Positions 45,690 to 51,215 of a stretch of 64,000 nt of DNA are shown here, piece by piece (the stretch's first letter is position 1; every line of letters begins with the position of its first letter). Source of the DNA: Melittangium boletus DSM 14713 (GTDB taxonomy: Bacteria > Myxococcota > Myxococcia > Myxococcales > Myxococcaceae); the NCBI RefSeq assembly GCF_002305855.1, contig NZ_CP022163.1, positions 6,939,765 to 7,003,764 of the forward strand, in the 5' to 3' direction. A program made the position numbers and the translations under genes. The notes under the pieces are model-generated. The model worked only from the letters and a program-made list of their open reading frames with translations. It did not search any database and was not told where the DNA came from.

Positions 45690-46078
45690 CCCTTGCGCAC
45701 CAGTTGTGCCGCCGCCTCTCGAAATGCCGCGACGAAGGCCCGATATTGCTCGCGTAGCGCCTTCAATGCCTGCCGCGTGGAGGCATGGCCCAACGGCCTC
45801 GGGCTCTTCTCGAGGTGCTCGGGCCGGGTAGGCGGGTGCTGCGCCTTCACGGCTCGCGCCCCCAGCACAGGCGTGCCCTGGGTTCGAGCCTTGGCTTCCA
45901 CTTGCTCCCTCATCCCCCGTACCGCACGCTGCCTCTGCTCCTCTTCACTCCGCGCTCCTATCCACCAGCCCCTCCTTCACCCCATGGGCCAGCACGTAGC
46001 GCAGCCGTCCCACCAGTGCCGTGTCGTCCAGCACCGGTTCCGCTGAGTAGCGCCGCTCCCAGAAACCTCCACTCCAGC
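45690..46078 (-). mobile_element. 3' partial copy (~390 bp) of the RAYT/IS200-like element found complete at 50430-51215
   Basis: 45690-46078 is ~99% identical to 50430-50818. This covers the last ~50 codons of the Y1 transposase plus ~240 bp downstream. Identity ends abruptly at 46078. Confidence 0.5.
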
Positions 46079-46226
46079 CGGTTTGATTTCATGGGACTCG
46101 CACCAGTGTTTGTCTTCATTCAGATCAGGTGTTCTCCCGACGAATCTTCTGGACCGACCCGCCCAGCGTGGACTTCCCTGTTGCATTCCTCCTCCCTGGG
46201 GGATTTGGAGAAACATCATGTCTTGG

Positions 46227-48068
46227 TCATACAGTCTCCCCTTCGCGATCCTGACCCTGTTCTCTCTCTCGGCCTGTCGTGTGACCGTGGACGACGCGCC
46301 GGGGGATGTGAGCGGCGATGAACAGTCGTTGCTCTGTGGCGGCGCGGGCCCCTGCTGGGCCGACCTTCAGACCATCAACATCGGCGCGAGTTCCGCGCCT
46401 GGCCGCACCGGGCAGTGGTGGTGCGACCACCACTTTGGCCTCAACCTCCGGGGCTCGTGGGAGTGCGTCGAGGGGACAGGAAGCGCCTGCTCCTCACAGG
46501 TACCGAACTCCGGGAACGTACGGTGTGGGCGCCTGGGGAGCGACGGGTCGACGCCTTACTCCGGTGCCTCTCGCGCGATCCAGCCCCTCGGCTATGGGAG
46601 GGTCGAGCGCATCCTCGTGACTCAGTCCGCGGCGGAGCGGAACGGCAAGTGGTGGTGCGACAACCACTTCGGTAACAACCTCGGAGGCTCCTGGCGGTGC
46701 CTGGACGTCTCGGGCGGGGGCTCCTGCGGTGCGACGGTGCCCAATGGCGAACTCGTGAGCTGTTCCCAGTACGGGAACGTGCAATCCGTCAGCGTCGGCG
46801 GCAGTGCCGCCCCTGGCCGCACCGGACAGTGGTGGTGCGACGTCCACTTCGGCGGCAATCTCGGCGGCAACTGGGACTGCCTCGCCGTCACGGGCGGGAA
46901 CTGCATGGCCGACGCGCCTCCTAGCGCCACCGTCACCTGCGGTCGGTACACCCCGGTGGACGAGTCCCCCTTCGCGCCTCCGTCCTGCACGGACCCATCG
47001 CTGAATGGGGCCGAGCGGGAGTTCTGCTCCTACACCGAGTACATGACGACCCGGCGAACCTCCACGCTCTATCTCTACAACGACTACCTTCGGGCGGGAA
47101 TCAACCGCTCCTTCGGGGGAACGCTCTTCGAACTCTACGGGAGCGACAAGCGCAATCGCATCGAGGAGCATGGCGGATCGGCCGTCCAGCTCTCCATCTG
47201 GGGGTATGACCCACAGGCCTCGGGGACCGCGTACTTCACCACCACCGTCTGCAGCCCGACTGCCCATGACAGCGCCGCCACCTGCCAGGAGGCCAATGGG
47301 GGGACTCCGTGCGCAGCTGTCGCCACTGGTGCACAGATCAGCAACTGCACCACCGAGCAGAGCTGCGGAGGCTGGTCGGCCGCCGCGCCCTGGAACCCCA
47401 TCCAGGCCCAGGCCGCCAACTGTGGCTGGAATGGTCCGACGAACGACGTCAGCCAGGTGATCGAGTCGAACGGGGCCCTGACCTTCGTGAAGAGCAACCC
47501 CTACCACTTCACCAAGACGACAGCCTTCGATGGGATGACCTGGCGGGTCACCGGGAAGGTGCCGAGCAATCGGCCCTATCTTCAGCTCACCTACCAGATG
47601 AGCTACTCCAGTACGCGCATGGTGGGAGAGCACAACCAGGAGATTCCCGCCCTCATCACGGACGAGACCCTCGGCCACTGGTATTACTATTACGAGGGCA
47701 ACGCCCCCTACGCGGACGCCCGAGGGACCGTTACCCGGCTGCGCTCCGACTTCGGGACCGAACTCCGGCTACCCGCGCGCACCGCGCCGCTCCCGCAGCC
47801 TCCCCCCAGCACCTACCACGATGCGACCGAGGAGTGGATGACCGTCTGCGACCGGGAAGAGTTCCAATGCCTCACCGTCGCGAGCTTCGCGCCCGGAGTG
47901 AAGACGTTCGCCCAGGGAGGACCGTACATCACCCCGCTCGGCCGATTCGCGCTCGGCGGCGCGTACAACGCCGCGTGGGACATCTACCTCTTCCCCTACC
48001 GTTACGACGACATCGTCGCCGGTAAGTCCGTGCGGGAGTGGATCTACGACCTCAAGCTCGGGCGCTGA
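46227..48068 (+). CDS. secreted lipoprotein with N-terminal ricin-B-type (QxW)3 beta-trefoil lectin-like domain and ~400-aa unknown C-terminal region
   Basis: Lipobox LFSLSAC. Three tandem ~45-aa repeats each containing G(Q/K)WWCD.HFG.NLGGSW.C (residues ~57-85, 140-170, 190-220). The Q-x-W in each repeat is the hallmark of the three subdomains of ricin-B lectins. Confidence 0.5.
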   Translation, partial: SYSLPFAILTLFSLSACRVTVDDAPGDVSGDEQSLLCGGAGPCWADLQTINIGASSAPGRTGQWWCDHHFGLNLRGSWECVEGTGSACSSQVPNSGNVRCGRLGSDGSTPYSGASRAIQPLGYGRVERILVTQSAAERNGKWWCDNHFGNNLGGSWRCLDVSGGGSCGATVPNGELVSCSQYGNVQSVSVGGSAAPGRTGQWWCDVHFGGNLGGNWDCLAVTGGNCMADAPPSATVTCGRYTPVDESPFAPPSCTDPSLNGAEREFCSYTEYMTTRRTSTLYLYNDYLRAGINRSFGGTLFELYGSDKRNRIEEHGGSAVQLSIWGYDPQASGTAYFTTTVCSPTAHDSAATCQEANGGTPCAAVATGAQISNCTTEQSCGGWSAAAPWNPIQAQAANCGWNGPTNDVSQVIESNGALTFVKSNPYHFTKTTAFDGMTWRVTGKVPSNRPYLQLTYQMSYSSTRMVGEHNQEIPALITDETLGHWYYYYEGNAPYADARGTVTRLRSDFGTELRLPARTAPLPQPPPSTYHDATEEWMTVCDREEFQCLTVASFAPGVKTFAQGGPYITPLGRFALGGAYNAAWDIYLFPYRYDDIVAGKSVREWIYDLKLGR

Positions 48069-48375
48069 CAACCCGGGGAGCGGCGCGCCTGGACCCTTCC
48101 TTCTCCTCCCCTCTCATCCAGGTCAGCGCAGGTCCACCTCAAGTCCCCCGAAGGTTCCCCCAAGCAGGTGGGGAGGAAAGGCGCGTGACGCGCCCCCAGG
48201 TAGCAGCAGAGGAGGCGAGCGTGGCGCCTGAGGCAGGGGCGAGCAAGGACAGGACGCCGCCAGGAGACCAGGCAGGGCTGCCGCGCAGGACCTTCGCGGT
48301 GGACGGGCTTCGCCTGCGTCAGGTGTGGAGCCAGGCGGCGGGTGCTGGCAGGACTGCATGGATGCCGTGCTCCGA

Positions 48376-49421: not shown

Positions 49422-50228
49422 ATGACCTCGCCGCAGTCAATGGTGCTTGAGTTCCCCGCGATGCTCCACGGTTCTATTGGCTCCATCCGCCGCGAGGTGA
49501 GGGCCAGGAGCGAAGGCTGGGCCCGGGAGTACCTCAAGACGGGTGGCTTCAGCCTGCCCCGGCGGATGCGCCAAGTGCCGCCCGGCGAGCTTCTGGTGAT
49601 GCACTCGGCGGCCGAGTTTGAAGTCATGGGCCGCTCGAGTTGGCGGATTCACATGTTCATCGACGTCTTCATGAACCTGAATGAGGGCGTGCCGGAAGAG
49701 GAGTACCCGCGCGTGCGGGAGTCCTTCGAGTCCTTCTGCCTGAGCACTCCATGGGGCGCGCTCTACCATGCCGTGTCTCCGCCCCCACCGCGGAGCGCGC
49801 AGCGCATGGCCAGGCGGCTCGCCGCTCTGCTGAGCTTCTGGGACGTGCTCCAGGGCCCGCTCTACGCGTACAGGGTGCCCGATACCCACCACACACTCGA
49901 TGAGATCATTGCGTACATCTACGGCATGACATTGGATGCGTGGTGCCCCGGAGGCGCCACCTCGGTGCGCGAGCACCTGGTGCTGACGGTGGAGCGCATG
50001 GCTCGTGCAACTCGGGAGGAGTGCATGGAGGCCGTGCTCCGGGTGATTCCCAGCGTGGTGCGGATGAACACCGACCTCCAGCACCGCGAGGAACTCAACG
50101 ACCCGGACTTCCTGCGCGAGCGCCTCGCCGCGCTCCGCCCGGACGACTTCGAGAGTCTCTCCAGCGCCTACCGCTTCGCGGTGAATGGGCAGCTATTCGC
50201 GTGGGACCTGGCTCTGGGGCGGCATTGA
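49422..50228 (+). CDS. hypothetical cytoplasmic protein (268 aa); its 3' end is partially duplicated at 48376-48492
   Basis: ORF with ordinary composition and no signal peptide or motifs I recognise. Confidence 0.45.
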   Translation: MTSPQSMVLEFPAMLHGSIGSIRREVRARSEGWAREYLKTGGFSLPRRMRQVPPGELLVMHSAAEFEVMGRSSWRIHMFIDVFMNLNEGVPEEEYPRVRESFESFCLSTPWGALYHAVSPPPPRSAQRMARRLAALLSFWDVLQGPLYAYRVPDTHHTLDEIIAYIYGMTLDAWCPGGATSVREHLVLTVERMARATREECMEAVLRVIPSVVRMNTDLQHREELNDPDFLRERLAALRPDDFESLSSAYRFAVNGQLFAWDLALGRH

Positions 50229-50667
50229 GCGCCGTCGCGCCGGGCCTCAGCCGGCCACAGGCAGGGTGAAGAAGAAGTGCTGCCTTCGCGCCGGAGAGGT
50301 GTCAAAGAACTTGGACCCGGAGAGGTGTCCGAGAGGTGTCCGGAGAGGTGTCAAAGAACTTGGGCAGGCGCGACACGCGGCGGGAAGGCGAAGGGAGGAA
50401 AGCAGGCCAGGAAATCCCCCCGACTCCACCGCGCCGCCGCCTCTCGAAATGCCGCGACGAAGGCCCGATATTGCTCGCGTAGCGCCTTCAATGCCTGCCG
50501 CGTGGAGGCATGGCCCAACGGCCTCGGGCTCTTCTCGAGGTGCTCGGGCCGGGTAGGCGGGTGCTGCGCCTTCACGGCTCGCGCCCCCAGCACAGGCGTG
50601 CCCTGGGTTCGAGCCTTGGCTTCCACTTGCTCCCTCATCCCCCGTACCGCACGCTGCCTCTGCTCCT

Positions 50668-51215
50668 CTTCACTCCGCGCTCCTATCCACCAGACCCTCC
50701 TTCACCCCATGGGCCAGCACGTAGCGCAGCCGTCCCACCAGTGCCGTGTCGTCCAGCACCGGTTCCGCTGAGTAGCGCCGCTCCCAGAAACCTCCACTCC
50801 AGTCCACCAGCTTGCCCACCTTCTTGGACAGGTTGGTGCGCAGATACTGCATGAAGCCGGCAAGCGCGGCACCTCGTGCCCACACCAACAAGTGGAAGTG
50901 ATTGGAGGCGAAGGTAAAGGCCTACAGCCGGATGGTGCCCGCGCTCTGCTGGACGGCTCGTGCCAGCACCCCTCCTACCACTTCGTTCATCTCCGCGCTG
51001 GGGCGTAGTAGGAGTCGCCCCTGGAAGCACCTGGACGTGACGAAGTAGTAGCCCTCCTGGAACATCCTCAGCGGCCAACCCATCCCCGTCCCCCCTCGTG
51101 AGCACATCGAGGCCGGATGCACCGCGCGCGCCAACTCGCAAGTCCGCGGAAGCATTTGAAGAGGGTGGGTTCCACCGTCCACGGCTTGGGCCCCGCGTTT
51201 CGAGTCCTTTGACAC
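50668..51215 (-). pseudogene. REP-associated tyrosine transposase (RAYT, IS200/IS605 Y1-HuH family) with in-frame stop
   Basis: Minus-strand translation gives ...[15 protein letters not shown]...TIRL*AFTFASNHFHLLVWARGAALAGFMQYLRTNLSKKVGKLVDWSGGFWERRYSAEPVLDDTALVGRLRYVLAHGVKEGLVDRSAEW. This has the HuH motif (NHFHLL) and the RAYT C-terminal W.RR(F/Y)...NPVK.GLV-like block. A TAG interrupts the frame at ~50905. Confidence 0.55.

Follow-up and report, generated by a model that had tools for sequence, protein, structure and literature searches.

The locus described here lies in a 64,000-nt stretch (hereafter, the window) of the Melittangium boletus DSM 14713 chromosome (NZ_CP022163.1, 6,939,765–7,003,764, forward strand; assembly GCF_002305855.1). 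Two near-identical segments of a Y1 transposase gene, which resembles the genes of REP-associated tyrosine transposases (RAYTs; REP, repetitive extragenic palindromic), flank a lipoprotein gene and a putative toxin–immunity gene pair, tox249 and imm268 (Table 1). An earlier note on this DNA had read the arrangement as a cassette of secreted-protein genes bracketed by RAYT copies and exchanged by recombination. The window was compared with 77 related toxin–immunity (tox–imm) loci from Archangiaceae (L001–L077; none from M. boletus; 1.28 Mb in total). The 4.35 kb between the two segments proved to be a mosaic of three unrelated pieces, namely the lipoprotein gene, the stump of an IS91-like (IS, insertion sequence) transposase gene and the remnant of an ancestral toxin–immunity locus.

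Table 1. Features at the repeat locus, in order along the window (positions are those of the window).
Feature	Position	Strand	Remark
Copy A, internal fragment of a dead Y1 (RAYT-like) gene	45706–46078	−	373 bp, 99.7% identical to 50431–50803
Lipoprotein gene, 617 aa from ATG, lipobox LSAC	46215–48068	+	lipobox read from translation
IS91-like (Y2) transposase, C-terminal relic, frameshifted	48155–48348	+	ends exactly at start of immA stump
immA stump, codons ~198–244 plus original stop codon	48347–48492	+	family columns 200–244; 89% identical to 50014–50153
tox249, Sec-exported Tox-REase-9-like (PD-(D/E)xK) putative nuclease toxin	48580–49329	+	invariant motif residues
imm268 (immB), cytoplasmic, presumed cognate immunity protein	49422–50228	+	position directly downstream of tox conserved
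Spacer plus last ~15 histidine-kinase codons (..FFFTLPVAG*), convergent	50229–50293	−	cut by REP box
3' REP-like boxes, two CCGGAGAGGTGTCAAAGAACTTGG copies with partial copies between	50291–50363	+	inner box holds Y1 stop codon
Copy B, RAYT-like Y1/HuH transposase pseudogene	50351–51083	−	TAG and 188-nt frameshifting deletion; HuH and Tyr kept
5' REP-like box, GGAAGGTGTCAAAGGACTCG plus partial copy	51203–51245	−	inverted relative to 3' boxes; same layout in L070 and L014
cysI 3' fragment (sulfite reductase hemoprotein)	51245–51718	+	starts at outer edge of Y1/REP element

The two segments form a direct repeat with an offset of 4725 nt and an identity far beyond chance, in which the sole internal mismatch lies at 45969 and similarity drops abruptly at both ends. 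The near-identical repeat recorded earlier is thus real; it had been given as 390 bp, and its right-hand range (50430–50818) overshoots by 15 bp. The fuller segment, copy B, starts at the codon at 51083, and position 51215 is merely an upstream GTG of the open reading frame (ORF). Residues 1–138 of the Y1 family map to 51083–50673 and residues 197–305 to 50689–50357 (minus strand). Copy B retains the motifs SNHFHLL (HuH; His codons at 50900–50898 and 50894–50892) and RYVLAHGVKE (Tyr codon at 50723–50721), the catalytic residues of which are invariant in a 25-sequence family alignment. It carries an in-frame TAG at 50924–50922, where relatives have Tyr or His, and, compared with L070 and L063, 188 nt are absent at ~50670, which shifts the reading frame. 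Copy B is dead because of these two inactivating lesions.

The best curated match of the Y1 protein was NCBIfam NF047646 (REP_Tyr_transpos; E = 1.4e-13, 51 bits, cut-off 80), with the alignment covering positions 4–144 of the 146 in the profile, and the match of its N-terminal part to Pfam Y1_Tnp was marginal (23.2 bits, cut-off 23). A single-sequence search against the PDB returned no match, and the family profile reached significance neither with the solved TnpAREP (4er8; E = 0.43) nor with ISDra2 TnpA (E = 0.15). Full-length relatives are ~310 aa long and have a C-terminal extension of ~170 aa. The family is present in several copies per genome (in Cystobacter fuscus Cbf 10, for example, as the full-length clusters P0263, P0265, P0269 and P0294); copies within a genome are diverged paralogues with 80–88% identity, and fragments and pseudogenes are numerous among the related loci. 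The positions of the HuH and Tyr residues place the predicted protein in the Y1 HuH superfamily. Since it falls below the NCBIfam cut-off and belongs to a multi-copy family, RAYT-like is a reasonable label, as opposed to proven RAYT.

Copy B is flanked by REP-like boxes in inverted orientation. Their core, GGTGTCAAAG, occurs at 50298 (+), 50347 (+) and 51207 (−), and these three sites, all flanking copy B, are the only ones in the window; the 16-mer form of the box is GGTGTCAAAGGACTCG. Exact GGTGTCAAAG cores numbered 31 in the 1.28 Mb of related DNA against ~1.2 expected, in loci that were sampled around tox–imm genes, and in these loci the boxes flank other Y1 copies in the same inverted arrangement. 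At least five inverted doublets of ~65 nt stand alone among the related loci and fold as long hairpins (z = −3.9 for the one in L004); the boxes beside copy B did not fold into hairpins on their own (z from 0.2 to −1.8). Doublets of the GGAAGGTGTCAAAGGACTCG box were located at L004 5359–5425, L032 ~11950–12030, L020 ~9905–9990, L070 ~930–1000 and L006 ~4700–4770, and by their layout they appear to constitute a REPIN-like repeat family of Archangiaceae, of which a literature search found no description. The earlier note had identified the fuller copy as a RAYT-type HuH transposase gene with an in-frame TAG, and both points stand, given its HuH and Tyr residues, its best curated match and its inverted boxes; the boxes are also what a search for flanking REP-like palindromes, suggested in the same note, brought to light.

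Copy A spans only Y1 residues ~94–138 and 197–283, without start codon, stop codon or REP boxes, and carries the same 188-nt deletion as copy B (at ~45945 in copy A). As it shares this deletion and has no gene ends, it is a piece of an allele that was dead beforehand, the same allele that is represented by copy B. Neither of its flanks (45524–45705 and 46079–46214) matched other sequence of the window or any of the 77 loci. Diverged Y1 sequence in these flanks, as a sign of gene conversion between two old copies, was considered and rejected, as no residual similarity was present in any frame. Because the element ends and a working gene are missing, copy A was not made by transposition. It would instead have arisen in one or two non-transpositional events, through segmental duplication or illegitimate recombination. 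By one route, 46079–50803 would have been duplicated in tandem, and most of the first copy, as far as 50430, would later have been lost; the right junction of copy A (46078|46079) is exactly the novel joint that such a duplication predicts. By the other, a 373-bp templated patch would have been placed between 45705 and 46079 during break repair. Once present, direct repeats with 99.7% identity would expose the 4.7 kb between them to loss or amplification through RecA, and this liability would follow passively from the repeats and would not be a designed mechanism.

The first piece of the mosaic is the lipoprotein gene. Its product combines three Trp/Cys-rich α/β internal repeats with a conserved C-terminal domain of ~350 aa; 148 homologues were found, and the protein had no Pfam match even at E ≤ 1 and no NCBIfam match. 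Pfam likewise gave no match for 41 of its relatives. A confident AF2 (AlphaFold2) model (predicted local distance difference test, pLDDT, 90.8) consists of helix-containing α/β repeats and a galactose-mutarotase-like domain, and the best Foldseek matches of the C-terminal domain were galactose-mutarotase-like proteins and a GH174 fucanase. Described earlier as a ricin-B-lectin lipoprotein, it is a lipoprotein by its lipobox, but the lectin assignment fell away: Ricin_B_lectin matched neither the protein nor any of 41 relatives, and no β-trefoil occurred among the Foldseek matches. The gene is absent from all 77 tox–imm loci. One homologue (L078) lies 453 bp from a contig end, and its synteny is uninformative.

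The second piece, the IS91-like relic, is 80% identical over ~104 nt to window positions 5713–5815 and matches dispersed copies in at least 12 of the related loci. The paralogous relic at ~5400–5880, likewise frameshifted, matches Pfam Y2_Tnp with E = 1e-3, just below the cut-off. Similar pieces are scattered through many loci of Archangiaceae, frequently close to toxin/immunity modules.

The third piece, 48347–50293, is collinear with two C. fuscus loci (L001 and L062), in which the gene order is aldehyde dehydrogenase, immA, tox, immB and a convergent histidine kinase. It is the remnant of the immA–tox–immB–kinase locus that is intact in C. fuscus, with its left border at the IS91-like relic and its right border at the REP box. 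The immA stump, the immA–tox spacer, tox, immB and the kinase end have been retained. The stump aligns with immA of both C. fuscus loci, including the stop codon and the immA–tox spacer, and an in-frame 69-nt deletion has removed its last 23 codons. Collinearity with both loci extends over 48490–50293 and reaches, at the kinase end, 12594 in L001 and 12640 in L062, the intact kinase lying at 12549–14450 (−) in L001. Within the window, the stump appears as a short repeat (48347–48486 vs 50014–50153; 140 nt, 89%, E = 2e-47), which had been taken for a copied 3' gene end. The repeat is real; however, it comprises codons ~198–244 of the 268 and not the last 39, it begins 278 nt past the lipoprotein stop codon and not right after it, and it represents what is left of a tandem upstream immunity gene that is intact in C. 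fuscus. On the far side of the Y1/REP element, the cysI fragment encodes only the last ~130 residues of the hemoprotein, the first ~410 codons being gone (profile positions ~413–543 of 575; NCBIfam NF010029 and TIGR02041 match only residues 50–180 of the ORF).

The tox249 product carries a type I Sec signal peptide (..LGAQA/EPP) and no lipobox Cys, and imm268 has no signal peptide, in agreement with the earlier description of a secreted 249-aa and a cytoplasmic 268-aa protein. Across 31 family sequences, G54-K-A-A-H58, D106 and E117-[IL]-K119-P120 are invariant or nearly so. These residues match the Tox-REase-9 signature of GxxxH, D and ELKP (Zhang et al. 2012, PMC3482391); the trailing YxxE motif is not clearly present in tox249. 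The score of tox249 against PF15650 was 13.6 bits (cut-off 27.3), below the gathering threshold. Matches to this family were found in 28 of the 31 members, all of them below threshold (best E 2e-4), and PF15650 is listed for many tox249 homologues in the database's precomputed annotation. A search of PDB sequences with the tox249 profile gave no match. No protein-database entry matched tox249 at ≥90% identity, the best M. boletus entry being 86% identical, whereas imm268 is 100% identical to an M. boletus protein; the public record may lack an annotation of the tox249 gene or carry a flag on it. One member of the 268-aa family is named Imm49 by its source, an identity that we rejected for the family, none of the 31 members having a Pfam match.

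Toxin genes and genes of the imm268 family are adjacent in 59 of the 77 loci and occur in many copies per genome, with 75–85% identity among the toxins. Nucleotide similarity between these modules stops at the ORF boundaries, where no conserved recombination sites were seen. Four loci contain alternating imm–tox–imm arrays (L001, L062, L020 and L061), and internal fragments of immunity genes, mostly 3' parts, are present in at least eight others (L002, L030, L058, L071, L072, L073, L074 and L077). Truncated copies of the 268-aa family in the 77 loci were biased towards 3' parts, running from residue 94, 122, 154, 170 or 199 to the end. Beside the array in L001 of C. fuscus (5779–7842, −), there is a gene for a 440-aa secreted protein with a C-terminal REase-like motif (DFVDFDG...LLEVKG), followed by a 242-aa gene, which may be a second, different toxin/immunity pair. 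As to function, the tox249/imm268 pair most likely works through a Sec-exported PD-(D/E)xK nuclease toxin whose action the cytoplasmic 268-aa protein would neutralise within the producing cell.

Overall, we read the stretch, with a probability of about three in four, as a patchwork of gene relics in a variable region and not as a functional switching or exchange device. The locus sits in a transposon-rich variable region of ~48 kb of the M. boletus chromosome: G+C content is 49–69% across 6–54 kb, compared with 72–75% in the flanks of the window, and this interval holds nine DDE transposase genes, a group II intron fragment and IS91-like relics. The process at work is ordinary decay and rearrangement, in a region rich in mobile elements, and no genes of the stretch look intact except the lipoprotein gene and the tox249/imm268 pair. 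No recombinase, invertase or integrase was found among the window products scanned, some large ORFs (21.6–27.9 kb) being without a Pfam match. Direct repeats, the lack of a recombinase among the scanned products, bracketed DNA that does not recur elsewhere and an ancestral stump together speak against the locus being a shufflon or a device that actively exchanges cassettes. The earlier note had proposed shufflon-like exchange of a single cassette bracketed by RAYT copies. This proposal is not borne out, as the left copy is an internal fragment without ends, the bracketed DNA is a mosaic whose gene set occurs at no other locus, and no alternative 3' segments in opposite orientation are present. 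Its statement that the arrangement is not a simple IS insertion was correct. Its phrase orphan-module behaviour is loosely apt for a multi-copy toxin/immunity-like module whose relatives commonly have truncated immunity genes; active exchange, which it also implied, is not.

Several points weigh against the patchwork reading. The assignment of tox249 as a toxin is putative, with motifs and sub-threshold Pfam scores behind it, and the AF2 model of tox249 was poor (shallow alignment, pLDDT 43) and was not used for fold searching. The role of imm268 in immunity is presumed from gene order and from the one source name, Imm49, for a family without a Pfam match. The order and mechanism of the events that produced copy A cannot be reconstructed from one genome. 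In addition, REP boxes or Y1 relics lay ≤150 nt from the edges of tox–imm blocks in 10 of 36 cases, in 8 loci, compared with 0.73 for uniform placement, and none of 5000 permutations reached 10. If boxes are restricted to intergenic DNA, the excess would fall to perhaps ~2-fold, by a rough estimate that was not computed. This excess leaves room for a real functional link between REP/Y1 elements and tox–imm genes.

We consider it unlikely that the locus instead records cassette exchange or orphan-module turnover, in which paralogous modules would have recombined and an older module would have been replaced, leaving the 3' stump of its immunity gene behind, with the Y1 repeats serving as portable homology. 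The multi-copy nature of the module, its two genes being together in most of the loci, the imm–tox–imm arrays and the immunity-gene fragments elsewhere all fit such turnover, which is typical of polymorphic toxin systems (PMC3482391). However, the stump still has its original stop codon and, in the C. fuscus order, the ancestral spacer to tox, which indicates that tox–immB did not displace immA, and its 5' break lies at the IS91-like relic and not at another toxin module. Moreover, module homology ends at the ORF boundaries without conserved recombination sites, the bracketing repeats are direct, and the scanned products included no recombinase.

A broader proposal is that the multi-copy RAYT-like family of Archangiaceae and its GGTGTCAAAG REP/REPIN-like repeats are located preferentially at the edges of Tox-REase-9/immunity modules and would supply there the breakpoints or portable homology through which these kin-conflict genes are truncated, duplicated and reshuffled. 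We regard this as unlikely, at roughly one chance in ten. If it were true, the present locus would be one snapshot of RAYT/REP-driven turnover of toxin–immunity repertoires, and if the repeats really concentrate at module edges, REP biology would be linked to the diversification of such repertoires. A role of this kind for RAYT systems was not found described in the literature searched.

There is a slightly smaller chance still that the segment was a composite or trans-mobilised unit. Two non-autonomous Y1/REP elements might once have flanked the 4.35 kb, or a circle might have integrated through Y1 homology, with excision or amplification through the 373-bp repeats and with RAYT/REP elements helping to move tox–imm genes. 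The flanking direct repeats are nearly identical, Y1 relics or REP boxes abut tox–imm blocks in L014, L029, L033, L063, L071 and others, boxes are enriched at block edges (10/36 vs 0.73), and intact Y1 family members (P0248 is one), present in several copies per genome, could act in trans. Against this, copy A has neither gene ends nor a REP box, no trace of Y1 homology remains in its flanks, the inactivating deletion is common to both copies, and the gene set was found at none of the 77 loci. The edge enrichment is estimated at only ~2-fold if boxes land only in intergenic DNA, and RAYTs are not known as carriers of cargo (PMC5581495). An assembly artefact, in which the repeat and its junctions would be a mis-join, is very improbable: nothing specific speaks for it, apart from copies that differ by a single base, and all four flanks are unique and continuous with intact ORFs, the mismatch and the sharp, non-identical junctions are unlike a collapsed or duplicated assembly repeat, and the source sequence is a single 9.9-Mb contig.

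Elsewhere in the variable region, insertion sequences have piled up at window positions 11900–21300, 30800–31900 and 35700–37100, where the nine DDE transposase genes, whole or in part, are of the DDE_5, IS4/IS5, ISAs1 and IS66 types and several stand back to back. The group II intron fragment (D1–D4; Rfam RF02005, 102 bits) lies amid transposase genes at 13348–13500 (−). A block of low G+C content (49–54%) at 7000–11300 encodes a 273-aa protein without assignment, one that resembles P-loop/SF1 helicases and another, of 736 aa, that has a 2OG-Fe(II) oxygenase domain at its C-terminus; the block looks foreign and is possibly a defence-type island. Between the cysI stump and a GSDH-like gene (52776–54179), a 268-aa ORF (51666–52472, −) has a G+C content at third codon positions (GC3) of 0.57, compared with ~0.8–0.9 for the genes around it, and matches nothing in Pfam or NCBIfam. 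On the other side of the repeat locus, an MBL-fold gene lies at 44573–45523. Scans for promoters, terminators, Rfam families and tRNAs added nothing at the repeat locus.

Read as a patchwork, the locus shows how relics of mobile elements pile up in a myxobacterial plasticity zone and erode neighbouring genes, here those for a histidine kinase, CysI and an immunity protein. The analysis had two by-products. One is a RAYT-like Y1 family of Archangiaceae that is associated with REP/REPIN-like repeats and occurs in multiple copies, not one. The other is a Tox-REase-9-like putative toxin, Sec-exported and encoded in very many copies, whose 268-aa partner is unclassified and which falls outside the definition of SitA.

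RAYT and REP–REPIN systems were reportedly the subject of studies by Nunvar (2010), Bertels and Rainey (2011) and Bertels (2017). Classical RAYTs are present as a single copy per genome, and their REPs follow a dispersed REP/REPIN pattern (PMC5581495). Copy B resembles them in encoding a single-domain Y1 HuH protein between inverted flanking repeats, and in the dispersal of these repeats, some of them as hairpin-forming doublets in the manner of REPINs. It differs in its score (51 vs 80 bits), in its C-terminal extension and in its multi-copy family with fragments, the copy in the window being dead. With TnpA of IS200/IS605 elements the family shares the HuH/Y1 fold of the Y1 family, several copies per genome and a weak match to ISDra2 TnpA. 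However, the Y1 copies are diverged paralogues, their ends are inverted boxes that also occur alone and not asymmetric subterminal hairpins, and no tnpB partner was seen. Likeness to a shufflon goes no further than repeats that lie close to a partial copy of a gene, and the bracketing repeats here are direct, not inverted.

For the toxin–immunity pair, the nearest parallels are the polymorphic toxin systems (Zhang et al. 2012), given the GxxxH...D...E[LI]KP signature of tox249, its Sec leader (of the type II secretion system, T2SS, type) and the small cytoplasmic gene immediately downstream. Unlike those toxins, tox249 is a stand-alone protein and not the C-terminal tip of an RHS, CdiA or LXG protein. 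Unlike Tox-REase-9 systems, its partner is not the listed Imm54 family and belongs to no Pfam immunity family, and the copies of the toxin make up a single family. SitA proteins are lipoproteins with an escort domain of ~375 aa, and SitA/SitI nuclease operons are present in many copies, often on mobile or variable DNA (PMC8546572). Identity of tox249 with SitA was rejected on account of its AQA/E type I cleavage site, the lack of a lipobox Cys and a length of 249 aa, which leaves no room for an escort domain; the neighbouring lipoprotein, moreover, is unrelated to the tox–imm module. Nonetheless, like the SitA/SitI systems of outer membrane exchange, tox249/imm268 represent myxobacterial, many-copy, putative nuclease toxin/immunity operons that are often found on mobile or variable DNA, and like polyimmunity and orphan loci they form tox–imm arrays with extra and truncated immunity genes.

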